The translations under genes and the position numbers were made by a program. This document shows, piece after piece, positions 2,483 through 23,851 of a stretch of DNA of 25,234 nucleotides (the stretch's first letter is position 1; every line of letters begins with the position of its first letter). Below the pieces are notes generated by a model. It made no database searches, was not told where the DNA came from, and saw nothing but the letters and a program-made list of their open reading frames with translations. The DNA is from Verrucomicrobiia bacterium (GTDB lineage Bacteria > Verrucomicrobiota > Verrucomicrobiia > Limisphaerales > UBA11358): assembly GCA_035945915.1 (NCBI GenBank), contig DASYZW010000541.1, positions 1 through 25,234 on the forward strand, given 5' to 3'.

Positions 2483-3508
2483 CTATTTTTCGCCGGAATT
2501 CAGAAACGCCCGCGCCATTTTTTCCAGCGCGGAAATCCATTGAGGATGTTCGTTGAGGCAGGGGATTTGGGTAAATTCCTTGCCGCCGGCTTCCATGAAG
2601 GTTTCCTTGCCGCGCAACCCGATCTCTTCAATCGTCTCGAGGCAGTCCGAGACAAATGCCGGGCACATCACCAACAACTTTTTAATACCGCGGGCGGGAA
2701 GCTCGGCAAGCACGTAATCGGTGTAGGGCTTCAGCCATGGGTCCTTGCCCAGGCGTGATTGAAATGAAACGGAATATTTACCGGCGGGAACGCCGGCCCG
2801 AGCGACAAAGGCCGCGACCGTTTTGAAACATTGCGCCCGATAACACGTCGCGTGGACGGGGCTGGCGCCTTCGCAGCAATTCCCATTTGCGAGGCAATGG
2901 CTGCCGGTTGGATCGGACTTCTTCAAGTGCCTTTCCGGGATTCCATGAAAACTGAAGAGCAAATGGTCATAACCGGCCCGCAGGTACGGTTCCGCGCTCG
3001 CCGAAAGGGCGTCAAGATAGTCCGGCCTATCAAAATAAGGCGGCTGAACCGACACCTTCATTTGCGGGGCGAGCCGGGCCGCGACCTCTTTAACCCGAAC
3101 AACGGCGGTTTCAAAGCTCGACATGGCGTAGTGCGGAAACAGCGGGACCAACAATAAATCGTCAACGCCGGCGTCTTTCAATTTACGAAGGGCAGTATCG
3201 ATGGAAGGATTTTGATAACGCATCGCCAATTCGACCGGAACGGGAAGAAGCGCCTTCAATTTAGCCTGGACATGTTTGCTCGTGACGACGAGCGGCGAGC
3301 CTTCGGGGGTCCAGATCTTTTCGTAGGCGTGAGCCGATTCCTTTGGCCGGGACGGCAGAATGGCGAAATGAACCACGCAAAAGCGAATGGGCCAGGGCGC
3401 GTCCAGAACGCGGCCGTCCATGAGAAACTCGCGCAGATATTTCCGGACGTCGCCGACGGCGGTTGAATCGGGCGAACCGAGGTTGACCAGCAAAATGGCT
3501 TTGCTCAT
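2483..3508 (-). CDS. hemH: Ferrochelatase with internal Cys-rich insertion
   Basis: AILLVNLGSPDS, AMRYQNPSI, PLFPHYAMSS, LLFSFHGIP, FQSRLGKDPWLKPYT, FVSDCLETIEEI. It has an ATGA overlap with the hemY stop. Confidence 0.97.
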   Translation of the reverse strand: MSKAILLVNLGSPDSTAVGDVRKYLREFLMDGRVLDAPWPIRFCVVHFAILPSRPKESAHAYEKIWTPEGSPLVVTSKHVQAKLKALLPVPVELAMRYQNPSIDTALRKLKDAGVDDLLLVPLFPHYAMSSFETAVVRVKEVAARLAPQMKVSVQPPYFDRPDYLDALSASAEPYLRAGYDHLLFSFHGIPERHLKKSDPTGSHCLANGNCCEGASPVHATCYRAQCFKTVAAFVARAGVPAGKYSVSFQSRLGKDPWLKPYTDYVLAELPARGIKKLLVMCPAFVSDCLETIEEIGLRGKETFMEAGGKEFTQIPCLNEHPQWISALEKMARAFLNSGEK

Positions 3509-4866
3509 TTTAAAAAGTTTTCGACGCGCCCGGCGGCGTTGCGGCCTGATACGATGGAGTCGGCCAGCGAAACCCCGTCCCGATAATGGCCGGCAAAGTA
3601 CAAGCCGCGCGCATTTGATTCGATTTGATCCAGCAGGTTCTTGAACTTTCCGTAGCCAAGATTGTATTGCGGGATGGCCCGGGGATAAAGCACCGTCTGC
3701 CGGAAGACGGGCGCGCCTTTCACACCCAGCAAAAGGCCGAGGTCATCGCAGGTCAATCGAACCAATTCATCGGGTTTGAGGCCGGCGAGCTCGGGATTCC
3801 GCTCGCCGCCGACATAACTGGTGAGCAACACATGGCCGGCAGGCACGCGATTTGGAAAAAGCGACGATGAAAAAATTGTGCCCAGGATTTTAAAACCTTC
3901 CACTTTAGGGATGAGCATTCCAAAGCCCTGGCATGGATGGGCGACGTCCTCGCGCCGGAAACCCAGGACGACGCTGGCAACCCGCGCGTAGTGGATTTGG
4001 GAGAAGATCGACACATCAACGGGCGCGGGCGCCGCGATTTCCAATTCCGCCAGCCGGTAGGAAGTCCCGCAATAAACCACCGCCGCAAATTCGGACTGAT
4101 CATTTCCGGCGGTTACCCGCCATCCATCCCCGGCGCGGACCAGGCTTTCGACCGGCGCATTCAATTTCAGCGCTATTCCCAGCCGTGCCGCCAGCGTATC
4201 CGGCAAAACTTGCAGGCCTTCGTCGAAAGAAAATCCGGGAGCGCGGTCCCGGGCGATTTCGCCGGTTTTCTTTCGATCACGCGCGCCGAGGAACTGGCCT
4301 TTGATGAGCGAGCCATACTTTGCCTCGACCTGGGCCAGACGCGGGAGCGCGTGCTGCAACGAAAGCCGCTCCGGATTTCCCGCGTAGATGCCCCCGACCA
4401 ATGCATCCACGAGCCGTTCCAAAAACTCGCGGTTGAGCCGCCGGGTCACGAACCCGGCGACGGTTTCTTCCTGACCGTCCCGCCTGGGGGGAACAAACGG
4501 CTCACGCAAGAGGGCGAGTTTGGACTTCAAGCTTAACAACGGTGAGATAAAAATCCCCGGGGGCGACGGGGGCATGGCCAGGGGCTTCCCGCCACGGACG
4601 ACGAACCGCGATTTTGCCTCCGGATTCGTGTAGAGCCTCCGTGATTCCAGATTCAATTCGCCGATGAGCCGGGGAATTTCCCGCGACGTTTCCAAAATCG
4701 TGTTTGGGCCTGATTCGGCGAGAAAGCCATCAGTTCGCGCGGATTGGATCACGCCGCCCGCGCGAGCGCCGGCTTCAAAGACGGTGACATTCACACCTTT
4801 GCGTTGCAGGGAAAATGCCGCAACCAACCCCGTAATGCCGGCGCCGATAATTGCGACGGATTTCAT
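3505..4866 (-). CDS. hemY: FAD-dependent protoporphyrinogen oxidase (HemY/HemG-type), 453 aa
   Basis: The true start is probably MKSVAIIGAGITGL (Rossmann GxGxxG) at 4866, not the 5247 start in the ORF track. Further motifs: FEAGARAGG, ESGPNT, GGIYAG, GFGMLIP, RAIPQY. Confidence 0.93.
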   Translation of the reverse strand: MKSVAIIGAGITGLVAAFSLQRKGVNVTVFEAGARAGGVIQSARTDGFLAESGPNTILETSREIPRLIGELNLESRRLYTNPEAKSRFVVRGGKPLAMPPSPPGIFISPLLSLKSKLALLREPFVPPRRDGQEETVAGFVTRRLNREFLERLVDALVGGIYAGNPERLSLQHALPRLAQVEAKYGSLIKGQFLGARDRKKTGEIARDRAPGFSFDEGLQVLPDTLAARLGIALKLNAPVESLVRAGDGWRVTAGNDQSEFAAVVYCGTSYRLAELEIAAPAPVDVSIFSQIHYARVASVVLGFRREDVAHPCQGFGMLIPKVEGFKILGTIFSSSLFPNRVPAGHVLLTSYVGGERNPELAGLKPDELVRLTCDDLGLLLGVKGAPVFRQTVLYPRAIPQYNLGYGKFKNLLDQIESNARGLYFAGHYRDGVSLADSIVSGRNAAGRVENFLK

Positions 4867-4876
4867 TTGAGCTGGT

Positions 4877-6253
4877 TCAAACTGTCCTTGAAAACCGCCG
4901 TTCGCCGGCCGGCACGAGGGTGTTGTCGAAGCACATCGCAATGTTCCTGATGAACAATCGACCGGTGTTGGTGACGGCGAGTCCGTCCGCCGTAAAGCGC
5001 ACGAGTCCATCGGCTTCAAACGGCGCGAGCGCGGCAAGTTCGCCGGCGAAGTGCTCCGGGAAGTTGACGCCGAGTTTGTTCGACATCGCCGAATAATCCA
5101 GGGAGAGATCGCACATGACCCGCATGATCGTTTCGCGGCGGATTTTGTCCTCATCGGCCAGGACGTAACCGCGGGCATACGGTCCTTCGCCGCGGTCCAG
5201 CGCCGCGTAATAGCCGGGCAATTCCTTTTCGTTTTGCCAGTAGGCATCGGGAATTTGCGAGATCGCGCTCATCCCGAACGCAAAAATATCGGCGTCGCCC
5301 CGGGTGCTGTAACCTTGAAAATTCCGCTGGAGGGTTTTGTTTTGCTGGGCCACGACCAATTCGTCGGCGGCCCGGGCGAAATGGTCCATGCCGATATAAA
5401 TGTAACGATTGTTTTCGGTGAGGCGCTCGATGACGTTTTTAAGCAACTGAAGTTTGACCTCGGGCTCGGGCAGAATTTTTTGTTCCAGGATTTTTTGGGC
5501 CGGCTTGATCCATGGCACGTGGGCATAACTGAAGACCGCGAGCCGATCCGGCTCCATTTCCAGGACGGTGTCCAGCGTATGACTGAAGGAGGCGACCGTC
5601 TGGTGAGGCAGGCCATAAATCAGGTCGAAATTGACCGAGCCAAACCCCAGTTCACGCGCCCAATCCAGAACCCGCTGCGTCATGTCACGCGGCTGGATGC
5701 GGTGGATGGCTTCCTGCACTTTGGGTTCAAAATCCTGCACCCCAAGAGAGGCGCGGTTGAAACCGATTTCCCGAAGCGCCAGGATGTGCTCCCGAGAAAG
5801 CCGGCGCGGATCAATTTCGACGCCGGCCTCGACATCAGCGGACAATTTAAAATGTCTGCGGATGATTTCACCCAGCCGGCGGATTTCGTCCGGGTGCAAA
5901 AAGGTAGGCGAACCGCCGCCCCAGTGGAGTTGGACGACTTCGCGCCGGGTGTCCACGAGCGCCGCCATGCGCGCGACTTCTGTTTCGAGATGATCGAGGT
6001 AGGCCCCGGCCTGTCCGTGGTTGGTGGTAATGACCGTGGTACAACCGCAAAACCAGCACAGGGTCTCGCAAAACGGAATGTGAAAATAGAGCGATAACCC
6101 CCGTCCGCTGCGGTTATTCGCCGAAATTTTTTCCACCAGATCCGGCCATTTGAGGTTGTCGGTAAATTTAGTCGCCGGCGGATAACTGGTGTATCGCGGC
6201 CCCGGCACATTGTATTTCTTTACCAGGTCAAGGTTGACGTTAAGTCCGGTCAT
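4877..6253 (-). CDS. hemN: Oxygen-independent coproporphyrinogen III oxidase (radical SAM)
   Basis: KYNVPGPRYTSYPPA, YFHIPFCETLCWFCGC (CxxxCxxC), LHWGGGSP, DLIYGLP, YIGMDHFA and LQRNFQGYS. These are true-HemN rather than HemW features. Confidence 0.96.
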   Translation of the reverse strand: MTGLNVNLDLVKKYNVPGPRYTSYPPATKFTDNLKWPDLVEKISANNRSGRGLSLYFHIPFCETLCWFCGCTTVITTNHGQAGAYLDHLETEVARMAALVDTRREVVQLHWGGGSPTFLHPDEIRRLGEIIRRHFKLSADVEAGVEIDPRRLSREHILALREIGFNRASLGVQDFEPKVQEAIHRIQPRDMTQRVLDWARELGFGSVNFDLIYGLPHQTVASFSHTLDTVLEMEPDRLAVFSYAHVPWIKPAQKILEQKILPEPEVKLQLLKNVIERLTENNRYIYIGMDHFARAADELVVAQQNKTLQRNFQGYSTRGDADIFAFGMSAISQIPDAYWQNEKELPGYYAALDRGEGPYARGYVLADEDKIRRETIMRVMCDLSLDYSAMSNKLGVNFPEHFAGELAALAPFEADGLVRFTADGLAVTNTGRLFIRNIAMCFDNTLVPAGERRFSRTV

Positions 6254-6286: not shown

Positions 6287-6466
6287 CAAAGCATTGCCGG
6301 TGGCGAGACGCATTTTTCCCCGAACGGCTCCTCCGCGGCCCTGAGGCCTCACCAAAATATGCCTAGAAATCACCAAAAGGCGGTTGGCCGAGAGCGGCGG
6401 TTTTCGCGAAGTTTTCGGGTGGCGCCCGAATTGCGCCCAAATCAACAGGAAACGAAAGATTGAATT

Positions 6467-6796
6467 ATGAAAAAGATCATCGTACTTGCCGCTGTGTTTG
6501 GCTTAACGGCGGCCGTGAGCGCTTATGCTGACGACGCCAAAGACACCTGGATGAACGTGTGCGCCAAGTGCCACGGCGCCGACGGCAAAGGCCAGACGAA
6601 AATGGGGCAACGACTTGGCTGCCGCGATTACACGGACGCCAAAGTGCAAGACAGTTTAAAAGACGCGGACGCGTTCAAATCCCTCAAGGAAGGGCTGAAG
6701 AACGACGACGGCAAAACGTTGATGAAGCCGTACGACTCGTTGTCCGATGACCAGATCAAGGCGCTGGTCGCCTATCTTCGAACCTTTAAGAAGTGA
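6467..6796 (+). CDS. Periplasmic monoheme class I cytochrome c (copy 1)
   Basis: Sec signal MKKIIVLAAVFGLTAAVSAYA, CAKCHGADGKG, and a candidate distal Met in KTLMKP. Confidence 0.93.
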   Translation: MKKIIVLAAVFGLTAAVSAYADDAKDTWMNVCAKCHGADGKGQTKMGQRLGCRDYTDAKVQDSLKDADAFKSLKEGLKNDDGKTLMKPYDSLSDDQIKALVAYLRTFKK

Positions 6797-6932
6797 ACTG
6801 CGAGCATTTAAGGCAGCAACCAAAAAATGCGCAACATTGGCCAACTGGCGGTTAGTCGTTTACCGGGACATAACCGAAAATTTCACCAACGGACGCAATC
6901 GATGCGCCGGAACCTGAAAAGAATATAAGACC

Positions 6933-7262
6933 ATGAAAAAAATAATGATACTAACGGCCGTGATGGGCCTGGCCGCGGCGATCAGCGCCCGCGGTGATGA
7001 CGCCAAGGACCTGTGGACCGCCAACTGCGCGAAATGCCACGGGGCCGACGGCAAAGGCCAAACGAAAATAGGCCAACGGCTTGGCATACGGGATTTTACC
7101 GATGCGAAAGTCCAGGCTGACATCAAAGACGACGCCGCGTTCAAGGCGCTTCGCGAGGGATTCAAGAACGACGACGGCAAAACGCTGATGAAGCCATTCG
7201 ATGCCTTGTCGGATGACCAATTGAAATCGCTGGTCGCCTATATCCGTACCCTGAAGAAATAA
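6933..7262 (+). CDS. Periplasmic monoheme class I cytochrome c (copy 2)
   Basis: Signal peptide, CAKCHGADGKG, KTLMKP. 80/109 residues are identical to copy 1 in an ungapped hand alignment. Confidence 0.93.
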   Translation: MKKIMILTAVMGLAAAISARGDDAKDLWTANCAKCHGADGKGQTKIGQRLGIRDFTDAKVQADIKDDAAFKALREGFKNDDGKTLMKPFDALSDDQLKSLVAYIRTLKK

Positions 7263-7331
7263 CGTTGCCCGGGCAAACAGCGCCAGTGCAACCGGCATCT
7301 CGGGATGCCCGCGCAAAATCCACGTCCACGC

Positions 7332-8813
7332 ATGAACATTGAAAATAAAAACGAACCAACGCACCCCCCCTCGGTCTTCCGCAACTGGCTGAGCTGGGCT
7401 GGATTTATCGTCGGGCTGGGCGCACTCTTCTCGTTCCTGCTTTTGTTCATGCTGGACGCGGTTGCGCATTTTTCGAGCCCTTATATTGGAATCCTTACGT
7501 TTTGCATCGTGCCGGCATTTTTGATTTCCGGGATTGGGCTGGCAATCGCCGGGGCCTGGCTCGAGCGGCGAAAGCGGCAGCGGGGCAATATTTCCGTGCC
7601 GCGAATGCAAATTGACCTTTCCGACGCGCGTGACCGGAAACGACTGGGCATCTTTGTGATCGGGAGCTTCGTATTCATTATGCTTTCGGCGGTAGGCAGT
7701 TACAACGCCTTTGAAATCACGGAATCGGTCCCGTTTTGCGGCGAAACGTGTCATACAGTCATGAAGCCGGAATTGACCACCCACGATCACGGGCCGCACG
7801 CGCGGGTGGCGTGCGTGGCCTGTCACGTGGGGCCGGGCGCGTCGTGGTTTGTGCGATCAAAGATTACCGGCTCGTACCAGCTTTACGCCGTAGCATTTCA
7901 TAAATATCCAACTCCGATTCCAACCCCCATTAAGAATTTGCGCCCGGCGCGCGAGACGTGCGAGCAATGCCATTGGCCCAAGTCCTTTGTCGGGAACCTG
8001 GACCGCACGTACGATTACTTCCAGGACGACGTTTCAAACACGCCGTATTCCATTCGGCTGCTTTTGAAAGTTGGCGCGGGCGACCCGGAGGAAGCCGGCA
8101 CCGCGCCTCCCGGCGGCATCCACTGGCATATCCTCAGCGGCAATACCGTGGAATACATCGCAACGGACGCGGCACGGCAAAACATCCCGTGGGTGCGGCT
8201 GACCGATGCGCAGGGCACCGTGACGGTCTTCCGCGCCCCGCGATTTACCAACGACATCAGCCATTATGAAATCCGCAAAATGGACTGCATGGATTGCCAT
8301 AACCGTCCCGCTCACCGCTATCAGCCGCCTGAATTTGCCGTCAACCATGCCCTTGCGGAAAGACGGATAGACCCGACGCTGCCCTGGATCAAGACCAACG
8401 CCGTGTATGTGCTGACCCGCCCGTACACAACTGAAGAAGAGGCCCGCACGGGCATCGCGACCGGCTTGTCCGAGCGTTATCCGAATGACGCCCGGATCAA
8501 ACCTGCGATCGCGGTCGTGCAACAGATTTACTCCGACAATTTCTTCCCGGAAATGAAGGCCGACTGGAGCAAATATCCCGACAACATCGGCCACATGATT
8601 TGGCCGGGTTGTTTTCGGTGCCACGACGGCCTGCACAAAACGGACGACGGCCGGCGCACGATCAAGGCCGATGACTGCAACTCGTGCCACACGATCCTCG
8701 CACAGGGGAGCGGCGCGGACCTCCTGAAAATGACGACCGGAGGGCAGCAATTTAATCACACGGGTGGCGATTATGACCTTGGATGTTCAGCCTGCCATAC
8801 CGGCGGACCATAG
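7332..8813 (+). CDS. Membrane-anchored NapC/NirT-family heptaheme cytochrome c (ImcH-like quinol oxidase)
   Basis: Three N-terminal hydrophobic segments, then CGETCH, CVACH, CEQCH, CMDCH, CFRCH, CNSCH and CSACH. The start is 7332 (MNIENK) or 7305. Confidence 0.85.
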   Translation: MNIENKNEPTHPPSVFRNWLSWAGFIVGLGALFSFLLLFMLDAVAHFSSPYIGILTFCIVPAFLISGIGLAIAGAWLERRKRQRGNISVPRMQIDLSDARDRKRLGIFVIGSFVFIMLSAVGSYNAFEITESVPFCGETCHTVMKPELTTHDHGPHARVACVACHVGPGASWFVRSKITGSYQLYAVAFHKYPTPIPTPIKNLRPARETCEQCHWPKSFVGNLDRTYDYFQDDVSNTPYSIRLLLKVGAGDPEEAGTAPPGGIHWHILSGNTVEYIATDAARQNIPWVRLTDAQGTVTVFRAPRFTNDISHYEIRKMDCMDCHNRPAHRYQPPEFAVNHALAERRIDPTLPWIKTNAVYVLTRPYTTEEEARTGIATGLSERYPNDARIKPAIAVVQQIYSDNFFPEMKADWSKYPDNIGHMIWPGCFRCHDGLHKTDDGRRTIKADDCNSCHTILAQGSGADLLKMTTGGQQFNHTGGDYDLGCSACHTGGP

Positions 8814-8850
8814 CCGTTTTTCATGGGTCTGCCGTTCGCCCGGCGCCAGA

Positions 8851-10965
8851 TTGACCTGGCGCCGATGGCTCATCGTTATTTTATTCTTGATCGGGAGCTT
8901 CGTTGGCCGAGCGGCCGATACCAACGGACTTGCCAACTCAGATTGCCTTGATTGCCATACCGACCCGACAACCGCCCGGGTCGTCAATGGCAAAAATGTC
9001 CCGCTCGCCGTTTTTCCCACCAATAGTTTTAATTTCTCCGTCCACGCCAAACTGAGCTGCACGGATTGTCATACGGGCGTGAAAGAATTGGTGCATGACC
9101 CGGGACTGCCGCCGCCGGATTGCGGACATTGCCATCAGAAAGAAGCCGCCCAATACGCCACCAGCATTCACGGCATCAGCCATGCCCTGGGCGCCTCGGG
9201 CGCCGCCAACTGCTGGGATTGCCACGGCTCGCACGATATCCTGCCCGTGAGCGACAGTCGCTCGCCGGTGTTCAAGCTGAATCTTCCGCAGACCTGCGCG
9301 AAATGCCATAGCAATCCCAATCTCACCCAGGAATACGAAATCAAACATCCGGAAGCGGCGTCCCAATACATGGAAAGCATCCATGGCCGCGCCTTGCTGA
9401 AGATGGGCCTGATTGTGGCGCCTTCCTGCAATGACTGTCACGGTGTCCATGATATCAAGCGCCCGGTGGACAGGGATTCGCCCGTCAACCATGCCAACAT
9501 CGCGCGGACCTGCGGCAAATGTCACTTCGGAATCGAGCAAACCTACGAGCACAGCATTCACGGCAAGCTGCTCGCGCAGGGCGACCCGCGGGCGCCGGTC
9601 TGCACCGATTGCCATACCGCGCACGATATCGTGGATCCTGACAACAAGAATTTCAAAGCCGTCAGCGACGCTCGTTGCGGCACGTGCCATGAGGACCGGC
9701 TCAAATACTACGGGGAAACCTATCACGGCAAGGCCATGGCGCTGGGCCAACCCAACGTCGCCCCCGAAGTAGCCGCCTGTTACGACTGCCACGGCTATCA
9801 CGACGTGCTGCCCGCCTCCGACCCGGCCTCACACTTGTCCCGCACAAACATCCTGGCGACCTGCCAAAAATGTCATGCGGGCGCGACCATCGGATTCACG
9901 GAATATCGCCCGCACGCCAACCCGATGGACGCGAAAAACTATCCCTTGTTTCACCTGGTATTCATGTGCATGACGGGTTTGCTCATCGGGACATTCGCCT
10001 TTTTCGGGCTTCACACGGTCGCGTGGCTTGTGCGGGCGACGTACCTTTATATGCATGACTCCAAGGCGTTCCGCGAATCCAAGATCGCGACGCAAACAGA
10101 TGGAGAATGGTTTACGCGTTTTATCCCGTTCGAACGGTTGCTGCACATCATGGTGGTGTCCAGCTTCCTGTTGTTGGTGATTACCGGCATGCCCCTGAAG
10201 TTTTACTACACCGGCTGGGCCAAGGCCATTTTCGCAATCATCGGCGGCCCGGAAACCGCGCGGACGCTTCACCGTTTTGGCGCGATCATTACCTTCATCT
10301 ATTTCAGCCTTCACCTGAGCTCGCTGGCCGGCAAGGCCTGGAAAGGCCGTAAAACGTTGCGCGCCGAAGACGGCAAGCTCCGGCTAAAACGGCTTTGGGG
10401 GGTCTTGTTCGGTCCTGATTCGATGATGCCTTCGTTGCAGGATTGGCGCGACTTCGTGGCGCACAATAAATGGTTCTTCGGCAAAGGCCCAAAGCCGCAA
10501 TTCGATCGCTGGACCTATTGGGAGAAATTCGATTACTTCGCCGTGTTTTGGGGCGTCGCGGTGATTGGCGCGTCGGGATTGTTCATGTGGTTTCCGACGT
10601 TTTTCACCCGGTATCTGCCCGGATGGATCATCAATGTCGCGCTGATCGTGCATTCCGATGAAGCGCTGCTCGCGGCGGGATTCATTTTTTCCATCCATTT
10701 TTTCAACACCCATTTCCGGATTGAAAAGTTCCCCATGGACACGGTCATTTTCTCCGGGCGCGTTTCCAAAACGGAAATGCTCCATGAGCGGAAGCGCTGG
10801 TACGACCGCCTGGTCGCCAGCGGAAAGCTCGATGAACACCGAGTCCGTGATGAATGGTTCCGATGGAAAAACATCGCGCGCTTTTTCGGCTACTTCTTCT
10901 TTGGCCTGGGCATGGTGCTCCTTGGGCTCATCATTTACGCAATGATCACGCGGCTTGAGCATTAA
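8851..10965 (+). CDS. 11-heme cytochrome c fused to a cytochrome b (FdnI/HydC-like) membrane domain; CbcL-like, copy 1
   Basis: Signal-like MTWRRWLIVILFLIGSFVGRAA from TTG 8851 (the track start at 8764 overlaps the upstream gene). It has 11 CxxCH, then TM helices with His in ERLLHIM, RTLHRF, IVHSDE and SIHFFNTH. Confidence 0.87.
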   Translation: MTWRRWLIVILFLIGSFVGRAADTNGLANSDCLDCHTDPTTARVVNGKNVPLAVFPTNSFNFSVHAKLSCTDCHTGVKELVHDPGLPPPDCGHCHQKEAAQYATSIHGISHALGASGAANCWDCHGSHDILPVSDSRSPVFKLNLPQTCAKCHSNPNLTQEYEIKHPEAASQYMESIHGRALLKMGLIVAPSCNDCHGVHDIKRPVDRDSPVNHANIARTCGKCHFGIEQTYEHSIHGKLLAQGDPRAPVCTDCHTAHDIVDPDNKNFKAVSDARCGTCHEDRLKYYGETYHGKAMALGQPNVAPEVAACYDCHGYHDVLPASDPASHLSRTNILATCQKCHAGATIGFTEYRPHANPMDAKNYPLFHLVFMCMTGLLIGTFAFFGLHTVAWLVRATYLYMHDSKAFRESKIATQTDGEWFTRFIPFERLLHIMVVSSFLLLVITGMPLKFYYTGWAKAIFAIIGGPETARTLHRFGAIITFIYFSLHLSSLAGKAWKGRKTLRAEDGKLRLKRLWGVLFGPDSMMPSLQDWRDFVAHNKWFFGKGPKPQFDRWTYWEKFDYFAVFWGVAVIGASGLFMWFPTFFTRYLPGWIINVALIVHSDEALLAAGFIFSIHFFNTHFRIEKFPMDTVIFSGRVSKTEMLHERKRWYDRLVASGKLDEHRVRDEWFRWKNIARFFGYFFFGLGMVLLGLIIYAMITRLEH

Positions 10966-11034
10966 CGCAATTGCTGTCCATATAAAAGCAACCTAAGCAC
11001 AGCTTTTAAATGCCTCGGCACCGATAGTTAATTG

Positions 11035-12762
11035 ATGTGCCGCGGACCTTTCATTATCGCCGTGGTGTTGCTGACGTCCCGGCTGTTTGCCGCCGCGCCG
11101 AGCGACAGCGATTGCCTCGATTGCCACGGCGATAACACGCTTACCAAAACCAATGCTGACGGGCGGGTTTTGTCGATGTTTGTCGATGCGGCCCGTCTGG
11201 CCGCCTCCGTTCACCGGACCAATTCCTGCGTGAGTTGCCACACGGACGCGACAGCGCGGCATCCCGACGATAATATCCAGCTTAAGCCGGTCAATTGCGC
11301 CGACTGCCATCTGCGCCAGACCCAGAGTTATGACGCCAGCGTGCATGGCGTGGCGCTTCGAGCCGGCCACCCTGATGCGGCGACGTGCCAGGACTGCCAT
11401 GATTCTCACGATATTCTTTCGGGCGAATCAGCGCTCTCGCCGATGTTTTTCTCGCGGCAGCCGCAGACCTGCGGCCGTTGCCATCCCAACGAAGCCGCCG
11501 ACTGGGCCGCGAGCGTCCATGGCAAGGCAGTTGTCGCGGGAAATCGAGACGCGCCCGTTTGCACGGACTGTCATTCTGAGCATAAAATCCAATCGCTCAA
11601 AAGCAGCCTCCAAATTTCCGAGGAAGTATGCGGGCGCTGCCATGCGTCGGAGCAACTAAACACGAAATACAATTTGCCGGATGACCGGGTAAAGACGTTT
11701 TTTGAAAGCTACCATGGCTTGGCGTCAGAATACGGCTCGACCGTTGCGGCGAACTGCGCCAGTTGCCACGGCTACCACAAAATTCTCCCTTCATCCGATC
11801 CCAATTCCACGATCAATCGCGCGCACCTGGTCGCGACGTGCGGAAAATGCCATCCGGGCGATACTTCGAACTTCGCGTTTGGCCGCATCCATGTGGCGCC
11901 GGACGGGCAGGCGGCCGGTTCTGAAATCAGCGTTCGGGTGAATCGCTGGGTGCGTGAAGCCTATCTCACGCTCATTTTTGGCGTGGTCGGGGCGATGTTC
12001 GCGCACAATTTCCTGCTGTTTCTGAAAAAGACCATGGCGCGCCTGCGCGCCAGCGCGCGACCCGTCCTGCGGATGAGCCTGGCGCAACGCTGGCAACATT
12101 TTGTGCTGGCGGGCAGTTTCATTGTCCTCGCAATCACCGGTTTTGCCCTCAAATTCCCGGATTCATTGCTTGCCAAACTGCTTGGCGCAAGCGAACCCGT
12201 TCGCAGATGGATGCATCGCATCGCCGGGGTTGTCCTGCTGCTGGCCGGCCTGTGGCATTTGATCTATCTGTTTTCGACCAAAGAGGGCCGCCGGCTTGTG
12301 CGCGATTTGTTCCCGGTCAAAAAAGACCTTTTCGATGCCGGGCGCGCCGTGCGGTACCTATGCGGTTTCACAAATGAAAAACCGCAGATCGGACGGTTCG
12401 GCTATGCCGAAAAGATGGAGTATTGGGCCGTGGTTTGGGGGACGGTGATCATGGGCGTGACCGGTTTGATGGTTTGGTTTAAGATCAGCGTGACCGACTG
12501 GGCGCCGCGCTGGGTCGTGGATGTAGCGCTGACCATCCACTATTACGAAGCCCTGCTTGCATGCCTGGCGATCATCGTCTGGCATTTCTACCACGTTATC
12601 TTTGATCCTGATGTTTATCCCATCAATCCGGCCTGCCTCGACGGGCGCGTCACCGAAGAATGGCATGAGCACGAACATCCGATGGCAGTCGAGCGGATGA
12701 TTAAGGCGCCGACAAAACGGCAAGCGAGAGAACCCGTCGAAAGCGGATCCCATCCACAATAA
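11035..12762 (+). CDS. 9-heme cytochrome c fused to a cytochrome b domain; CbcL-like, copy 2
   Basis: Signal peptide, 9 CxxCH, and TM His in RWQHFV, WMHRIA, TIHYYE and VWHFYH. Nine hemes plus a b-type domain is the architecture described for Geobacter CbcL. Confidence 0.87.
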   Translation: MCRGPFIIAVVLLTSRLFAAAPSDSDCLDCHGDNTLTKTNADGRVLSMFVDAARLAASVHRTNSCVSCHTDATARHPDDNIQLKPVNCADCHLRQTQSYDASVHGVALRAGHPDAATCQDCHDSHDILSGESALSPMFFSRQPQTCGRCHPNEAADWAASVHGKAVVAGNRDAPVCTDCHSEHKIQSLKSSLQISEEVCGRCHASEQLNTKYNLPDDRVKTFFESYHGLASEYGSTVAANCASCHGYHKILPSSDPNSTINRAHLVATCGKCHPGDTSNFAFGRIHVAPDGQAAGSEISVRVNRWVREAYLTLIFGVVGAMFAHNFLLFLKKTMARLRASARPVLRMSLAQRWQHFVLAGSFIVLAITGFALKFPDSLLAKLLGASEPVRRWMHRIAGVVLLLAGLWHLIYLFSTKEGRRLVRDLFPVKKDLFDAGRAVRYLCGFTNEKPQIGRFGYAEKMEYWAVVWGTVIMGVTGLMVWFKISVTDWAPRWVVDVALTIHYYEALLACLAIIVWHFYHVIFDPDVYPINPACLDGRVTEEWHEHEHPMAVERMIKAPTKRQAREPVESGSHPQ

Positions 12763-12813
12763 ATCCGGGATCCTCCCATACAAAAGCCGAAAGGGCGGTG
12801 TCTATCCAATGGC

Positions 12814-13305
12814 ATGAAACACTCGATTCGTTGGATGGTTGCTCTTGTGGCATCCTGCGCCATTTGTTCGACCATTTCTTATCAAAGCGCTTATCACTCC
12901 GGGTATTGCAACGGTTACCGCCAGGGTTCGGTAACCGGACTTACTTGCGGCGCTTTCGCCGAAAGTCTTACCCTGCTTGTATCATTGGAAAAACTTCGAC
13001 ACGGTGACATTCCGGCAGCCACCCGATGGATTGAGACGACTTGCTTTGGACGGGCAAACTCCCTTTTTAAATACCCGCCTCCGATGACTGGAACGGCCGG
13101 GCACTGGATAAAAGCGAACGAGTTGCTGCAGAGTCCCGACCCGGAAATGGCCCGGGCATTGGCGAAAGGATTGTCAGTTTATCGCGCGGCTTATCGAACA
13201 AATAGCGCCGACTGGGATACTACCGAGAAAAACCTTGATGCCGAGATCGCTAAGATAAAATCAGATAATTCCAAAGCGTGGGCGGGCATCGTTATCACAA
13301 ATTAG
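12814..13305 (+). CDS. Hypothetical protein with N-terminal signal/TM segment (orphan-like)
   Basis: 163-aa ORF that fills the gap between the convergent operons. No recognisable motif; lower GC than its neighbours. Confidence 0.6.
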   Translation: MKHSIRWMVALVASCAICSTISYQSAYHSGYCNGYRQGSVTGLTCGAFAESLTLLVSLEKLRHGDIPAATRWIETTCFGRANSLFKYPPPMTGTAGHWIKANELLQSPDPEMARALAKGLSVYRAAYRTNSADWDTTEKNLDAEIAKIKSDNSKAWAGIVITN

Positions 13306-13345
13306 GCTCATCCGGATCCTTCCAAAAAAGAATTTCAATGAATCA

Positions 13346-13371
13346 GGCGAGCATTGCCAATTACCTCGCCC
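13346..13371 (-). terminator. Possible hairpin/terminator downstream of pntB
   Basis: GGCGAG (13346-13351) and CTCGCC (13365-13370) form a stem between convergent genes. The minus-strand U-tract (13324-13329) is offset by about 16 nt, so the signal is atypical. Confidence 0.25.
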
Positions 13372-13397
13372 GTAAAGATGCCCATTGACGCCGTTGA

Positions 13398-14809
<1,412 letters not shown>

Positions 14810-14813
<4 letters not shown>

Positions 14814-15091
14814 TGTGATTTTTTCTTCTTAAACATTTGCAGCATACGGTCCGTGACCATAAATCCGCCAAAAACATTGGCAGAGCCGAATACCACCGCG
14901 ACAAATCCCAGGCCCTGCGCCAGCGGAGTGGACGCATCCGCCAGGACGAGGATGCCGCCAAACAGGATGATTCCGTGGATGGCGTTGGTTCCTGACATCA
15001 ACGGCGTATGCAACATCGATGGCACCTTGGAGATGACTTCAAAGCCCACAAAGACCGACAGAATGAAGATAAAAAGAATATTGGTATCCAT
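14810..15091 (-). CDS. pntA: NAD(P) transhydrogenase subunit alpha part 2 (membrane)
   Basis: VPSMLHTPLMSGTNAIHGI and NVFGGFMVTDRMLQMF. It has a 4-bp overlap with pntB. Confidence 0.96.
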
Positions 15092-15095
15092 AAAA

Positions 15096-16229
15096 TTAAC
15101 CGGCCTTGCCGTTGAGTTTGGGATTCACGATTTTGCCGCCGTGCGTGATCAGGCAGCCATTGATGATTTCATCGTCCAGTTTGAGCACGAAAGACTTTGA
15201 ATTTTTGTCCCAAAATTCGCTGACAAGATTTACGAGATTCTCGGAATAAACCTGGCTGGCATGCAATGGAGCGCGTCCGGGCATGTTCGCAATGCCGACG
15301 ATTTTCACGCCGTTGCGATCAATGATTTTGTCGTACGCCACGCCTTCGACATTGCCGCCGGTTTCCACCGCCAAATCGACGACGACGCTGCCCGGTTTCA
15401 TGGCGTTGAGCATTTCGCCGGTGACGAGAATCGGCGCCTTGCGCCCGAAAACCTGCGCGGCGGTGATAACGACGTCCGATTCGCCGCACGTCTTCTTCAT
15501 GGCCTCGCGCTGTTTCTGGATTTGTTCGTCCGTCAACGCCTTGGCATATCCGTCCTTCGTCTGGCCGGTTTCGCCCAGGTCAATTTTCAGGAATTGCGCG
15601 CCCAGGGACTTCACCTGCTCTTCCACAACCGGGCGCGTGTCATAAGCGGTGACCTTTGCGCCGAGGCGCTTGGCGGTCGCGATCGCCTGCAACCCGGCCA
15701 CGCCGACCCCGATGATGAAAACCCTGGCCGGCAGAATGGTTCCCGCGGCCGTGGTCATCATGGGAAAAATCTTATTGGAATGCCGGGCGGCAAGGATGAC
15801 CGCCTCATAACCGCCCAGGTTTGCCTGCGACGACAGAACGTCCATCTTTTGCGCGCGGGTTGTGCGCGGGATAAATTCCATGCTGATGGCGCTGATATTT
15901 CGAGCGGCGAATTCCTGGATCAATTCCTTTTCGTTGAACGGGTCGAGCAGGCTCGCATGAATCGCCGCGGGTTTGAGCCAGCTCACTTCTTCGATGGGCG
16001 GTTTGCGGAGCCGCAGAACCAGATCGGCCGAGCCGACGAGATTCCGGCGGTCAGCGGTGACGGTCGCGCCGTTGCGCGCGTATTCATCGTCGGAAAAGCC
16101 CGCGGCGGCGCCAATACCCGCCTCAACCTCGACCTGCGCGCCGAGCTTGATGAGCTTGGAAACGCAGGCGGGCGTCAACGGCGCGCGCGTTTCACCGGGA
16201 TGAACTTCCTTAGGCGCAGAAATTTTCAT
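15096..16229 (-). CDS. pntA: NAD(P) transhydrogenase subunit alpha part 1 (NAD-binding dI)
   Basis: PKEVHPGETR, PRTTRAQKMDVLSSQANLGGY, IIGVGVAGLQAIATAKRLGA, DLAVETGGNV. Confidence 0.97.
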   Translation of the reverse strand: MKISAPKEVHPGETRAPLTPACVSKLIKLGAQVEVEAGIGAAAGFSDDEYARNGATVTADRRNLVGSADLVLRLRKPPIEEVSWLKPAAIHASLLDPFNEKELIQEFAARNISAISMEFIPRTTRAQKMDVLSSQANLGGYEAVILAARHSNKIFPMMTTAAGTILPARVFIIGVGVAGLQAIATAKRLGAKVTAYDTRPVVEEQVKSLGAQFLKIDLGETGQTKDGYAKALTDEQIQKQREAMKKTCGESDVVITAAQVFGRKAPILVTGEMLNAMKPGSVVVDLAVETGGNVEGVAYDKIIDRNGVKIVGIANMPGRAPLHASQVYSENLVNLVSEFWDKNSKSFVLKLDDEIINGCLITHGGKIVNPKLNGKAG

Positions 16230-16441: not shown

Positions 16442-18289
16442 TCAGCCGGCGGCCGGCTTCTTCCGAAAACTCCGCCAAAGCTCCCGCGGCGCGAGCGCCA
16501 GCAGGATGATCGTGATTTGGCTGGCGACGAAAATCAACAGCCAACGAAACGCCGCCTCGGTAAAACCGTAGCTATGGAGGCCGATGCCGAGCATGTTCAC
16601 GCCGAACCAGGACCAGCTCGTGACGATGTTGCCCATCACGGCCATGATCATGAGGCCGCGCTCGCGGACAAGGCCGCCCCAGCGCGCGTGCAAGATCGCC
16701 GCGTTCCAGAGCACAATCAACAACGCGCCATTTTCCTTGGGGTCCCACCCCCAAAATCGGCCCCACGATTGGTCCGCCCAAATGCCGCCTAGAACCGTGC
16801 CGGTGAAACTAAAGAGCGTTGCAAAACAGACGATTCCGTAAACCATCCGGCTGAGCGATTTGCCGGTTTGCTCGTCCAGTGAAGTGGTCAAAAGGCCGCG
16901 CAGGATATAGATGATGGCCAGGAATCCCGCCACGAACGTGGAGGCATAGCCGAGTGTGACCGTTACGACGTGCGTCGCCAGCCAGAAATTCGTATCGAGG
17001 ACGGCGCGCATCATTTCCATTGTATCCCCGCTCAAGGCGAGGTTATGGGCGATGATCAGCGTGACAAATCCGGCAAATCCCGCAACCACGCAGCCGATGC
17101 CATCGCGATAAATCTTCTCCAGGATCATGCCCAGGATGACCGCTCCCCAGCCGATGAAAATGGCCGAGGAATAGAGGTTGGTCACTGGCGGACGCCCTTC
17201 GAGGTACATGCGAAAAACCAGCCCGAACGTGTGAATTACCCACGCCAGCGCGATCAGATAAAATGCCGACCGCCGAAGCCATTCGGACAGATTGACCCAC
17301 GAACACAGGGCAAGCACGAGCGCGAGCACGTAGATGACCATGGCTTTATAAAAGGGCTCCATCGTGCTGAACAAAAACTCCTGCGCCGCTTTTCGAGCCT
17401 GCGAGGGAAAATGGTCGGCGAGCCAAATCCGATAGTGAGCGACGGCCTGGTTGAAATCCGCGGGACGGCCGGCGCGCCAGGCGCTAACCATTGCGGCATA
17501 ATCCAATGCCGGGATTGAGATCTGGCCGGTAGGCGCCGCCTGCATCAAATTTGTGCCCATATTTTCCCAGGCGTCCTGGCCGCCGGGCGGGTCCGCGGGT
17601 GGAATAATATTCGGCAGCGCATATTCCGCCACAGTCTGGAAACCACTTAGAAAGCCCATGAATTTAACAAACGCAACCTGGTCATACTTTTGGCCGGCGG
17701 CGCGAGCGCTGACGGCGGCGATCCCGGCCGTCATGCTTTGCTGATACTCCGCCAGGTCGGCCGCCAGATCATCCGTGTCCGGAGGTTTGACGCTGAGTTC
17801 CAACCGCTGATAGAGGCTCAGGGCGGCGTAGAGTTTCATCAACTGGTTTTCGAAGACACTTCGTTTGGGGCCGTCGATGCCGTCAATCCGTTCGGCCTGT
17901 TTCTGGATTTCATCCAGCGAAGGACGCAGTTCGTTCAAGGAATAATATTTTTGCGCCTCGGGAAGTTTCAACATGGCGAGAACCTCGCCGTTATCGATTC
18001 GGAAGATGCGTTGAGCTTCGGCTTGCTCCGGCTTCATCATCACGCCGAGCAACCATTCGGTGGCGGAGACAGTTTGATTACTTTCGGCGATCGATAATGT
18101 TTGTTTCGCGCGGATCTGGAGCAGGGAATCGCGGGCAACTGAATCAAAAGGCTGGAAACGTCCGTCCATGAGCACAGGCAGCCGGCCGAATTCCCGGGTG
18201 TGAAAACCGCTTTCCGCCGGCTGATACAGGCTGGAAAAGAACCAGACTGCCATGACAGCAGTAAGAATCGTTGGAATCCATTTTTTCAT
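16442..18289 (-). CDS. ccsA: System II cytochrome c maturation protein CcsA/ResC with a large N-terminal periplasmic domain, 615 aa
   Basis: WWD domain GGIWADQSWGRFWGWDPKENGALL, FWLATHV, GLHSY. The true start is MKKWIPTIL at 18289, with an ATGA overlap with the upstream stop. Confidence 0.93.
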   Translation of the reverse strand: MKKWIPTILTAVMAVWFFSSLYQPAESGFHTREFGRLPVLMDGRFQPFDSVARDSLLQIRAKQTLSIAESNQTVSATEWLLGVMMKPEQAEAQRIFRIDNGEVLAMLKLPEAQKYYSLNELRPSLDEIQKQAERIDGIDGPKRSVFENQLMKLYAALSLYQRLELSVKPPDTDDLAADLAEYQQSMTAGIAAVSARAAGQKYDQVAFVKFMGFLSGFQTVAEYALPNIIPPADPPGGQDAWENMGTNLMQAAPTGQISIPALDYAAMVSAWRAGRPADFNQAVAHYRIWLADHFPSQARKAAQEFLFSTMEPFYKAMVIYVLALVLALCSWVNLSEWLRRSAFYLIALAWVIHTFGLVFRMYLEGRPPVTNLYSSAIFIGWGAVILGMILEKIYRDGIGCVVAGFAGFVTLIIAHNLALSGDTMEMMRAVLDTNFWLATHVVTVTLGYASTFVAGFLAIIYILRGLLTTSLDEQTGKSLSRMVYGIVCFATLFSFTGTVLGGIWADQSWGRFWGWDPKENGALLIVLWNAAILHARWGGLVRERGLMIMAVMGNIVTSWSWFGVNMLGIGLHSYGFTEAAFRWLLIFVASQITIILLALAPRELWRSFRKKPAAG

Positions 18290-19431
18290 TGGGCGAGCCT
18301 CCGTTTCAAAAAGGGAATGAGATGTTGGAGAAATTGAACAATGAGTCCCGCCCCGACCAGGAGGCAAGAAAAATAGGGCGTGAGCCATCCCGGGTTGCGC
18401 ACCACCTGAAGCACGCTGCCGCCATCATCGGGATCATAACTGGCCTGGTAAAACGTAAGTCCCGAATATCGCAGCGGATTGTTCATATAGATGAGGACTT
18501 CGCGGTCTTCTTGCGTTTGCGGGTTTTGCACACGAACCCGGCTCGAAAAATTGCGCGGAATATCCGTGCCCGGATAATTGTCATGGTGAAACTCCAGCAG
18601 CTTCAAACTGAACGGCATGTAATATCGCGCCGGGCGAAGGGCCATTTCGTAGCTGCGGCCGTTGATGCTGAATTCCTGGGGCTGAGAAAGGAAAGCCGAA
18701 ACCAGATAGTCACTTGGAGCATCGCGCGGGGTCGTTATTTCAATAATCGCCGAGGGCATGTCCACACGGTCCATGGCGGTTTCACGGGGCAATTCACGCC
18801 AGTAAAAGTTGTTTCCCAAGCCGGCGGTTTGGGGAACGGGTTGGAGGCCCGATTCCGGCTTGCCCGCGAGGTCAGAGTTCGCGTAAAAAGCTTTCACACG
18901 GACTCCAAACGGCAACATTCCATCGGGCGCCTGGCCGTCCCTAACCAAGAGTCCGGCGGGAATGGCGACAACCTTTTCGGCGTTGCGGTCGGTTGTATCG
19001 GTAATCGCCAGCTCATAATCGCGTTGCGCTTCGGAGAAGTTTTTCGTCTGGCCGATGCGCAAATGGAGCGCGCTTTCCTGCGACAAGGCATCGGTGAGCA
19101 TTTGCCCCACCAGCAACAGCACGATGCCCAGGTGAATGAGCATGATTCCGATTTTTCGTTTGCCCGGCTGATAAAAGCGCAAGTGCGCCGCAAGCAAGTT
19201 AATGAGCAGAACCGTTCCCAGGAGATAGCCTCCGGGAAACACCGGGATCTCCAAACCGCCGCCGGCCGGTTGCCAAAATATCAGAAAGCTCCGAAAGAAT
19301 TCGTTTTGGGCCTTGTACAATCCGAGATGCACCTGCGCGAGAGTGCCCCAAAACACCAGCACGCAGCCCAGGACCAGACAGGCGACCGTCAGTTTGAGCG
19401 AGGAAAATAAGTTGAAAAGCGCTTTGAGCAT
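18286..19431 (-). CDS. ccsB: System II cytochrome c maturation protein CcsB/ResB-like
   Basis: LFSSLKLTV N-terminus, three TMs with conserved-type His (MLIHLGIVLL), IYMNNPLRYSGLTFYQASY, and a C-terminal TM. It is translationally coupled to ccsA. Confidence 0.85.
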   Translation of the reverse strand: MLKALFNLFSSLKLTVACLVLGCVLVFWGTLAQVHLGLYKAQNEFFRSFLIFWQPAGGGLEIPVFPGGYLLGTVLLINLLAAHLRFYQPGKRKIGIMLIHLGIVLLLVGQMLTDALSQESALHLRIGQTKNFSEAQRDYELAITDTTDRNAEKVVAIPAGLLVRDGQAPDGMLPFGVRVKAFYANSDLAGKPESGLQPVPQTAGLGNNFYWRELPRETAMDRVDMPSAIIEITTPRDAPSDYLVSAFLSQPQEFSINGRSYEMALRPARYYMPFSLKLLEFHHDNYPGTDIPRNFSSRVRVQNPQTQEDREVLIYMNNPLRYSGLTFYQASYDPDDGGSVLQVVRNPGWLTPYFSCLLVGAGLIVQFLQHLIPFLKRRLAQ

Positions 19432-19432
19432 T

Positions 19433-20632
19433 TCAGTATTTTACGCCTTTGACAAATTGCGTGAAGGTGTCGCGCTGCCCGGCCACCAGCGCCGGGTCGC
19501 CCATTAATTTGTAAAACCATGTGCGGTCTGACAGAGTTACAACCACGCCAACCAGTTCAGCCGGCTGGCCGGTCTGCACGCTGGCGCCGCTGAAATCCAC
19601 GAGTTGCGCCTGGCCGCCGGGCACGGCAAACGTAACAGTCGAAACCGCGTCAATGGGGGGCAAACCGAGTTGGCCGCGCCAGCGATTAACATTGGGAGCC
19701 AGGCCGCCGCCGTTGCCGGGGGAGGAACTCACATTGACCGATGCCTTCGCGCCGTTTTGGCCGCTGAGCAGGAATTTGGCGATGAGAAATTGACCGGCGG
19801 AAGCGGGTTGCCAACCGGCAGGGACCTGCCAGGCGGGCTGATTTTGGTCGGGAGCAGGAGCGCTCGCGGAAGGCGCGGCCATCTCGCCGATTGAGGGGTG
19901 TCCGGCAGGCAACGACGACGGGTTCTCGATATTTGCCGCGTCCGGATGTCCCGGGGGCAGATTGCCGTCCGCCTGGAGAGAACCAAACTTCAAAGAACGG
20001 AGGAACAGGACGAACGTCTGTTTCTGGTCCTCAACGAGGGTTGCATCGCCAGTCATTTTAAAGAACCACGTAGTGCCGTCGCGATGCTGAATGCCAGCCA
20101 GAATTCGGTTGGTCTCGCCACTGGCGGGATTTGCCCCTGCCACGTCGTAGAGCTGGGCGGTCTGTCCGTCCACTTCCACATTCTCAGCCAGGCTTTGCAA
20201 TTGATCATCGGGAACCGGTTGCAGGCCGACCTGGCCGCGCCATCGGTTCACGTTCGGCGAATCTCCCCCGGCCATGCCGGGAAGCGGAACGATACTGACG
20301 TCCGCTTGTTTGCCATCCGGCCCCGCCACTTCAAATGACCCGACGCGCATTTCGCTGGGCGGCATCTGCGTCCACCCCGACGGAGTGGTCCATGTGACCG
20401 GTGGCGCATTCTGGACATCCGAGGCGACGATGCCGGAGGGCATTTGGCCCGGGGCGGCCACCGGCTGGTCCGTTGAGGCCACGGCGGTTTGTTGGGGTTG
20501 CGCGTCCTGGGTATCGGACAGGCGATACACCTGGACCTGTTCCTTCCGACAACCGCCGGCCGGCAACAGCACCGGCGTCAGGAACAGAAGCCATGCGACG
20601 TTATTACAAATTTTCCTGGAACAATTTTTCAT
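19433..20632 (-). CDS. Uncharacterised predicted lipoprotein with an internal domain duplication and two LPxGHP motifs
   Basis: Lipobox-like LLPAGG-C. Two homologous halves (W..PxGW ... PNVNRWRGQ(V/L)GL ... TWF(F/Y)K(M/L)). Its stop lies 1 bp from the ccsB start. Confidence 0.8.
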   Translation of the reverse strand: MKNCSRKICNNVAWLLFLTPVLLPAGGCRKEQVQVYRLSDTQDAQPQQTAVASTDQPVAAPGQMPSGIVASDVQNAPPVTWTTPSGWTQMPPSEMRVGSFEVAGPDGKQADVSIVPLPGMAGGDSPNVNRWRGQVGLQPVPDDQLQSLAENVEVDGQTAQLYDVAGANPASGETNRILAGIQHRDGTTWFFKMTGDATLVEDQKQTFVLFLRSLKFGSLQADGNLPPGHPDAANIENPSSLPAGHPSIGEMAAPSASAPAPDQNQPAWQVPAGWQPASAGQFLIAKFLLSGQNGAKASVNVSSSPGNGGGLAPNVNRWRGQLGLPPIDAVSTVTFAVPGGQAQLVDFSGASVQTGQPAELVGVVVTLSDRTWFYKLMGDPALVAGQRDTFTQFVKGVKY

Positions 20633-22987: not shown

Positions 22988-22993
22988 GGGCGC

Positions 22994-23836: not shown

Positions 23837-23851
23837 GGGACTGTTTGGGGT

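Follow-up and report, generated by a model that had tools for sequence, protein, structure and literature searches.

The inner-membrane multihaem cytochromes ImcH and CbcL of Geobacter act independently at different potentials, with acceptors above and below about -0.1 V, and both are constitutive (PMC5322298). In one published reading, CbcL spends membrane potential to reach lower-potential acceptors and ImcH, which reduces periplasmic cytochromes, conserves more energy (10.1101/2023.05.03.539133). Work on purified ImcH (the same preprint) names H137 and Q179 as the haem 1 ligands, with E127, K173 and Y188 as conserved neighbours. CbcL is grouped with MtrH and MtoC in a family defined by a periplasmic domain with 3-23 CX2CH motifs and a fused C-terminal HydC/FdnI-like cytochrome b; most published members have six transmembrane helices and a few have four or five. 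Here we analyse a string of one ImcH-like and two CbcL-type genes (7332-12762) from a Verrucomicrobiia metagenome-assembled genome (MAG) of the order Limisphaerales (4.37 Mb, 861 contigs, 89% complete). The window, by which we mean the whole stretch of 25,234 bp, is an entire contig. A first-pass annotation had described three consecutive inner-membrane multihaem genes with short gaps, and we found them as described, on the plus strand. The string likely encodes three separate menaquinol:cytochrome c oxidoreductases that work in parallel in an extracellular electron transfer chain. The genes concerned, including the two upstream cytochrome genes, are as follows.

cyc1, 6467..6796, plus strand: class I cytochrome c of 109 residues, monohaem, preceded by a signal peptide; PF00034 and PF13442; one CAKCH.
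cyc2, 6933..7262, plus strand: 109 residues, paralogue of cyc1; PF00034 and PF13442.
imcH-like, 7332..8813 (alternative start 7305), plus strand: 493 or 502 residues; three transmembrane helices, one CX3CH and six CX2CH.
cbcL1, 8764..10965 (likely start TTG 8851), plus strand: 733-residue open reading frame; 11-haem periplasmic domain fused to a dihaem-b domain.
cbcL2, ATG 11035..12762, plus strand: 575 residues; periplasmic domain of nine haems, joined to an FdnI-like dihaem-b domain that has five transmembrane helices.

The imcH-cbcL1-cbcL2 string and its products

All five genes are co-directional in the order cyc1, cyc2, imcH, cbcL1, cbcL2, with short gaps between the last three. The imcH/cbcL1 junction measures -50 or +37 bp, depending on the cbcL1 start, and the cbcL1/cbcL2 spacer is 69 bp. 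One Logan contig of 10.5 kb, assembled from run X5 of another study, spans the whole of 6400-13400 and differs at 68 places, and shorter contigs from three further runs bridge both junctions; the gene order is therefore not an assembly artefact. Orthologous strings are also present in congeners. We found no further ImcH or CbcL-type gene in the genome itself, which has one ImcH and two CbcL proteins. Most of the sampled words of 6400-13400 are present in soil and rhizosphere metagenomes from several studies, and 6-7% of them in two peat runs. Among the best 80 loci, the closest named ImcH relative is from a bog MAG titled "Limisphaerales bacterium" (76% identity). In scans of the string, promoter-like sites occurred at chance level and terminator-like matches fell within genes; FNR/CRP box matches were likewise at chance level, with none upstream of cyc1.

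The database record from the same contig is a 493-residue protein, which agrees with the imcH start at 7332; ImcH residue numbers given here count from 7305. Hydropathy placed transmembrane segments at 32-50, 63-81 and 114-132, and an AlphaFold2 model (mean predicted local distance difference test (pLDDT) score of 81) has helices at 28-53, 59-92 and 108-139. The first haem motif, a CX3CH (C145-GET-C149-H150), stands next to the last transmembrane helix and is invariant across 28 diverse ImcH homologues. Six CX2CH motifs follow at 170, 219, 328, 436, 458 and 494, giving seven haem motifs in total; ImcH proteins are defined by five to nine CX2CH motifs after the first haem, spaced in the way typical of the family, and Geobacter has six. 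The protein matched PF03264 (NapC/NirT) at 38.9 bits (cut-off 24.1) and TIGR03153 NrfH with an E value of 8e-13. Against solved structures, the sole meaningful match of the model was NrfH (Foldseek, 2j7a_C; TM-score by target 0.61, root-mean-square deviation 2.4 Å). E140, K186, Q192 and Y201 lie at -10, +36, +42 and +51 from H150, offsets equal to those of the published E127, K173, Q179 and Y188 from H137 of G. sulfurreducens, an indirect match that uses the published residue numbers. The haem-1 stretch that carries these four residues is indel-free in most homologues. By its motifs, domains and modelled fold, the product of 7332-8813 is assigned to the ImcH family, which comprised 710 representatives (50% clustering) at E <= 1e-30. 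Certain acidobacterial ImcH homologues (loci L128-L130, L132, L134-L136 and L143) have 12 CX2CH motifs in frames of about 540-670 residues with a C-terminal haem extension, and no CbcL-type gene lies near them.

When translated from TTG 8851, CbcL1 begins with a signal peptide (MTWRRWLIVILF...GRA/AD), followed by 11 CX2CH motifs and, at the C terminus, a domain of multiple transmembrane helices. Its haem spacing agrees with that which Zhong & Shi 2018 list (Table S2) for 11-haem proteins of Opitutae and Opitutus terrae. Hydropathy detected four segments in the membrane domain and alignment suggested two more histidine-bearing helices, so that the domain probably has six. CbcL1 scored 23.5 bits against PF01292, under the cut-off of 30.1; the b domains of CbcL1 and CbcL2 share 29% identity across 232 residues (98.6 bits). 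CbcL2 has a signal peptide, nine CX2CH motifs and an FdnI-like C-terminal domain, with 57 bits against PF01292 and an E value of 3.5e-12 against FdnI. The upstream TTG at 11032 reads G in three other metagenomes, and no variant is listed for ATG 11035, which is thus the likely start of cbcL2. That T>G change is one of seven substitutions clustered at 11010-11032 of the cbcL1-cbcL2 spacer in the three metagenomes; outside the spacer, the only listed variants within 10785-12141 are at 10785, 10803 and 12141. The CbcL2 model (mean pLDDT 71) has five transmembrane helices and no C-terminal sixth, and its best match was FdnI (Foldseek, 1kqf_C; TM-score by target 0.79). PDB 28pb_A, tried as a structure for the CbcL haem domain, was rejected on its differing motif spacing.

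CbcL2 H356, H395, H503 and H518 align with the four haem ligands of FdnI, H18, H57, H155 and H169; the same columns hold H461, H503, H630 and H645 in CbcL1. Across 31 L1-type and 43 L2-type b domains, these four haem-b histidines and one further histidine do not vary. We therefore place both proteins, as read from these features, in the CbcL/MtrH/MtoC family, and the ImcH-like and CbcL-like assignments of the first-pass annotation were right. A tree built from 77 b domains separates an L1 from an L2 clade with 99% support in the Shimodaira-Hasegawa-like approximate likelihood-ratio test (SH-aLRT), several phyla occur in each clade, and CbcL1 and CbcL2 of the window group with the Limisphaerales members of their respective clades. 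On the identity of about 29% and this split into multi-phylum clades, we rejected the idea that the two genes arose by a recent duplication; judged by the tree, CbcL1 and CbcL2 are old paralogues. The L1 type is fused in Limisphaerales. Two genes, one for the multihaem haem-c part and one, haem-free, for a b domain of 285-357 residues, take its place at loci of Acidobacteriota, Ignavibacteriota and Bacteroidota (L071, L084, L085, L092, L099, L102 and L117).

Linkage of imcH to CbcL-type genes

The verrucomicrobial loci compared came from an even sample of the phylum, from relatives and from named genome records (the best 80 loci, none from Geobacter). The counts cover related genomes, which are not independent, and the best-match sets are biased towards ImcH proteins like that of the window. 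In Verrucomicrobiota, a co-directional CbcL-type gene lay directly beside imcH in 21 of the 48 loci with enough flank; one lay within 5.5 kb in 25/48, and 10/48 had both types. Among the Acidobacteriota nearest to the window ImcH, an L2-type gene was found directly upstream of imcH and co-directional with it at 24 of 25 loci, often with a gap of 0-4 bp. In an even acidobacterial sample, 72 of 151 genomes had ImcH; of the 36 imcH loci fetched, 12 had a CbcL-type b-domain gene within 7 kb, nine of them directly adjacent and four of these nine co-directional. The same pairing was seen in Ignavibacteriota, Bacteroidota, Dadabacteria and Binatia, and the linkage recurs in at least six phyla. Gene order differs, being cyc-imcH-L1-L2 in Limisphaerales and L2-imcH or L1-L2-imcH in Acidobacteriota.

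Published tables point the same way. In three Desulfuromonadales-related MAGs, imcH and cbcL are side by side by their locus tags, and in others they are a few genes apart (PMC6295460); the ImcH and CbcL homologues of Desulfuromonas acetexigens have consecutive accessions and were both expressed on electrodes (PMC12133095). We found no comment on the linkage in the published papers on these loci. The premise of the first-pass annotation, that the three genes are packaged together in a special way, thus did not hold: imcH next to a CbcL-type gene is widespread in Verrucomicrobiota, Acidobacteriota, Ignavibacteriota and Bacteroidota and is also present in Dadabacteria and Binatia, and locus tags and accessions suggest it for Desulfuromonadales. 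The string is an ordinary member of known families, not a new system.

Many verrucomicrobial loci (Opitutales, Chthoniobacter, Luteolibacter and others; L009, L010, L050, L056, L059, L061-L063, L068, L070 and L082) have imcH as the last gene of a co-directional cluster of MtrA-like, large outer-membrane protein, monohaem cytochrome c and imcH genes. A 2018 census stated that no mtrAB or mtoAB is next to imcH (PMC6295460). Three records titled as Bifidobacterium or Bifidobacteriaceae MAGs (L042, L047 and L050) have Limisphaerales-type cyc-imcH-cbcL1 or related verrucomicrobial-type imcH loci, and are probably mislabelled or mixed bins.

The first-pass annotation had also considered a hetero-oligomeric complex. 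Adjacency that is kept across phyla despite changing gene order, gaps of often 0-4 bp or overlapping frames, and the retention of all three genes by most genomes of the order could be expected if ImcH and one or both CbcL-type proteins cooperated, either in a membrane supercomplex or in a menaquinone redox loop. In such a loop, a CbcL-type protein would take electrons from a low-potential donor in the periplasm and use them to reduce menaquinone at the cytoplasmic face, ImcH would re-oxidise menaquinol at the periplasmic side, and protons would be moved; in keeping with this, the quinone site of FdnI, the structural relative, is on the cytoplasmic side in the structure of formate dehydrogenase N. 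The distribution of the genes in congeners argues otherwise. All three genes are held by 12 of the 15 ImcH-bearing genomes checked in the order, and the full string is present in G222, G203, G214 and G235. However, cbcL2 lies elsewhere, apart from a linked imcH-cbcL1, in G211, G224, G240 and G237; cbcL1-cbcL2 is on a different contig from imcH in G204; the three genes are all apart in G212 and G210; G228 has no cbcL2; and imcH occurs without either CbcL type in G220 (95% complete) and in G218. ImcH can thus stand alone, and the linkage is not obligatory. This pattern fits complementary functions better than an obligate hetero-oligomer, and the low frequency of a CbcL-type gene within 7 kb in the even acidobacterial sample (the 12/36 above) also counts against cooperation. 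In Geobacter, each gene is needed alone, at a different potential (PMC5322298). A complex prediction for ImcH (24-502) with CbcL2 (60-576) gave a score of 0.00 ("no answer"), which speaks neither for nor against binding, and no computed result here supports binding. Each protein has its own membrane anchor and quinone-site homology, and the hetero-oligomer proposal found no support. We consider cooperation improbable.

The cbcL1 orthologue looks interrupted in two congeners, as two tblastn pieces in different frames in G222 (L021, 7497-9657) and as two frames of 443 and 331 residues in G204 (C9, 28397-30473); either a frameshift or a sequencing error would account for this. The cbcL1 b domains of L027 (from G211) and L041 are near-identical (branch lengths 0 and 0.012). 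In L041 cbcL2 follows cbcL1 and in G211 it is on another contig, a difference that points to a recent rearrangement.

Surroundings of the string and the proposed electron route

The rest of the window holds the following genes.

hemN, hemY and hemH, 2483-6253: haem synthesis, adjoining the cytochrome genes on the upstream side.
pntAB, 13398-16229: transhydrogenase genes between the inner- and outer-membrane parts of the island.
CcsA-like, 16442-18388, minus strand: system II cytochrome c maturation; PF01578/PF05140 support the CcsA/ResB pair.
ResB-like, 18286-19431, minus strand: system II cytochrome c maturation.
Conserved lipoprotein, 19433-20632, minus strand: 399 residues, with no Pfam match.
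Putative outer-membrane protein, 20759-22987, minus strand: 742 residues.
MtrA/DmsE-like 7-8-haem lipoprotein, 22994-23836, minus strand: TIGR03508 DmsE family, E value 6e-49, below the cut-off.
Multihaem cytochrome, 23852-25234, minus strand: open at the contig end.

The co-directional string sits inside an electron-transfer island, with haem synthesis, cytochrome c maturation, MtrA-like and large outer-membrane protein genes in the same window. The first-pass annotation had named formate dehydrogenase, hydrogenase and nitrite reductase as the partners that would speak against its assignments, and the window has no gene for a catalytic subunit of any of the three. Neither an oxidase gene nor a trihaem c7 gene is present in the window. 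The MtrA-like protein has 280 residues with seven CX2CH and one CX4CH, and the products of 20759-25234 are probable downstream partners of the string. In other Verrucomicrobiota, MtrA-like and outer-membrane protein genes lie directly upstream of cyc-imcH, and the cyc gene directly upstream is the most conserved neighbour of imcH across the phylum. The nearest solved relative of cyc2 is Kuenenia cytochrome c-552 (E value 1.4e-9). The lipoprotein, ResB-like and CcsA-like trio accompanies imcH in many verrucomicrobial loci, with the lipoprotein gene directly upstream of the other two, and the 399-residue lipoprotein may be an accessory factor of cytochrome c maturation. We rejected the open reading frame orf163 (12814-13305) as a member of the module, since it lacks a Pfam match and none of the related loci has a homologue of it.

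The route that we favour builds on the observed gene order, haem motifs, ligands, homology and conserved synteny. We predict that imcH, cbcL1 and cbcL2 are co-transcribed with cyc1 and cyc2. ImcH would oxidise menaquinol at an NrfH-like site on the periplasmic face, beside the CX3CH haem, and release protons outside. In CbcL1 and CbcL2, an FdnI-like dihaem-b bundle would move electrons through the membrane into the periplasmic wires of 11 and 9 haems, respectively. Small periplasmic cytochromes would be reduced by all three proteins, with Cyc1 and Cyc2 as candidates, and these may pass electrons to the MtrA-like cytochrome and the outer-membrane protein encoded on the other strand and so to extracellular acceptors such as Fe(III) or humics. 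Several entry points probably allow respiration at different acceptor potentials and energy yields, as do ImcH, CbcL and CbcBA in Geobacter. By this analogy, the 'gearbox' of several quinol-oxidising entry points put forward in the first-pass annotation is plausible. Our inferences are the oxidation of quinol, the choice of redox partners, the direction in which electrons flow and any division of labour by potential.

Some points weigh against this route. Class I monohaem cytochromes usually have a high potential. Geobacter ImcH showed no interaction with the monohaem PccH (10.1101/2023.05.03.539133). These two considerations make the role of Cyc1 and Cyc2 as acceptors uncertain. The genome also encodes haem-copper oxidases, with three COX1-family matches above the Pfam cut-off, as well as a bd oxidase, so that the cytochromes c could serve other ends, and sequence cannot assign potentials to the three 'gears'. 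The CbcL/MtoC family is also present in Fe(II) oxidisers, which leaves the direction of flow open (PMC6295460).

Electrons could accordingly run inward. Donated by Fe(II) or reduced humics outside the cell, or by a partner cell, they would pass the MtrA-like conduit and then the monohaem cytochromes c, after which a CbcL/MtoC-type protein would reduce the quinone pool, or the cytochromes c would feed oxidases, as in mtoAB-mtoD-mtoC of Gallionella and Dechloromonas. The family occurs in Fe(II) oxidisers and Fe(III) reducers alike (PMC6295460), the window combines MtrA-like, large outer-membrane protein, monohaem class I and CbcL-type genes like the mto clusters, and the genome has the oxidases just mentioned. 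ImcH homologues, however, have so far been reported only in reducers of extracellular acceptors, and nothing in the sequence fixes the direction. We regard inward flow as unlikely, if slightly less so than cooperation between ImcH and the CbcL-type proteins.

The oxidases also bear on a third possibility, that the three proteins form a general quinol:cytochrome c set that replaces bc1 and serves haem-copper oxidases or periplasmic reductases, with no role in extracellular electron transfer. A bc1-type cytochrome b was not found in the genome, which is 89% complete, and the cytochromes encoded upstream are similar to c-552 and to class I domains of the CcoP type. NrfD-family genes are present, though, and could belong to an alternative complex III; many Verrucomicrobiota have imcH embedded in an MtrA-like/outer-membrane protein cluster, and the oxidases are encoded outside the window. 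Such a general set is the least probable of the readings considered here.

Three parallel oxidoreductases feeding extracellular acceptors thus remain the reading we prefer. Soils, rhizospheres and peat are rich in Limisphaerales and their acidobacterial neighbours, and a complete, conserved quinol-oxidising cytochrome set beside an outer-membrane conduit suggests a capacity for Fe(III) or humic respiration; if true, this would bear on carbon and iron cycling in wet soils. ImcH and CbcL-type genes are commonly linked outside Geobacter, often with two kinds of CbcL, so metagenomes should not be read on the assumption, taken from Geobacter, that the genes are unlinked and CbcL is single. Should the recurrent adjacency in at least six phyla reflect real ImcH-CbcL cooperation, as a supercomplex or a redox loop in series, for which we see a slim chance, the unlinked and independently acting pair of Geobacter would be the exception.

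Comparison with described systems

The window ImcH resembles GSU3259 (Levar 2014, PMC4251993; Zhong & Shi 2018, PMC6295460; Pimenta 2023) in its length of about 500 residues, three N-terminal transmembrane helices (13-35, 45-67 and 100-122 in the published coordinates of GSU3259), a CX3CH right after the third helix and six CX2CH at almost the same spacing. The haem motifs start at 145, 170, 219, 328, 436, 458 and 494 in the window protein versus 132, 156, 205, 311, 428, 448 and 486 in GSU3259. As in the ImcH family, the window protein has a NapC/NirT/NrfH-like region, and its E, K, Q and Y near haem 1 keep the offsets given in the preprint. Unlike the window gene, which stands between two cyc and two CbcL-type genes, GSU3259 is monocistronic and unlinked to cbcL. 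The known partner of Geobacter ImcH is the trihaem PpcA, of a kind for which the window has no gene.

Like GSU0274, both CbcL proteins join a multihaem domain in the periplasm to a dihaem-b domain of the HydC/FdnI type, and CbcL2 also has nine haems. The last four motif spacings are 30, 23, 42 and 28 in CbcL2 versus 29, 28, 43 and 28 in GSU0274, a comparison of motif coordinates only. GSU0274 has 619 residues and six transmembrane helices, whereas CbcL2 has 575 and five, and the first-haem spacing differs. The window has two deeply diverged CbcL paralogues where G. sulfurreducens has one, and the 11-haem pattern of CbcL1 is already listed for Opitutus terrae Oter_2603 and other Verrucomicrobia (Zhong & Shi 2018).

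As in the window, imcH and cbcL appear adjacent in Desulfuromonadales, namely in D. acetexigens (TRO80643.1/TRO80642.1, judged from consecutive accessions) and in MAGs with tags A2X79_01185/01190, A2X96_02395/02390 and A2X92_08560/08565 (judged from consecutive tags). These loci have one CbcL, whereas the window has two CbcL paralogues and the upstream monohaem cytochromes. The mtoAB-mtoD-mtoC and mtrAB-cymA-mtrH clusters of Gallionella ES-2, Dechloromonas aromatica and Rhodoferax ferrireducens likewise combine a CbcL-family protein with MtrA-like, outer-membrane and monohaem class I proteins. They have no ImcH, however, and in the window about 8 kb and a change of strand separate the outer-membrane genes from the string, and the MtrA-like protein is short (280 residues) and under the DmsE-family cut-off.

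At the level of structure, NrfH (PDB 2j7a) matches ImcH residues of about 114-223, and FdnI (PDB 1kqf chain C) matches CbcL2 residues of about 342-567 with all four haem-b histidines. Unlike the NrfH and FdnI systems, the string has no NrfA or formate dehydrogenase catalytic partner nearby, and its modules are fused to long haem-c wires.

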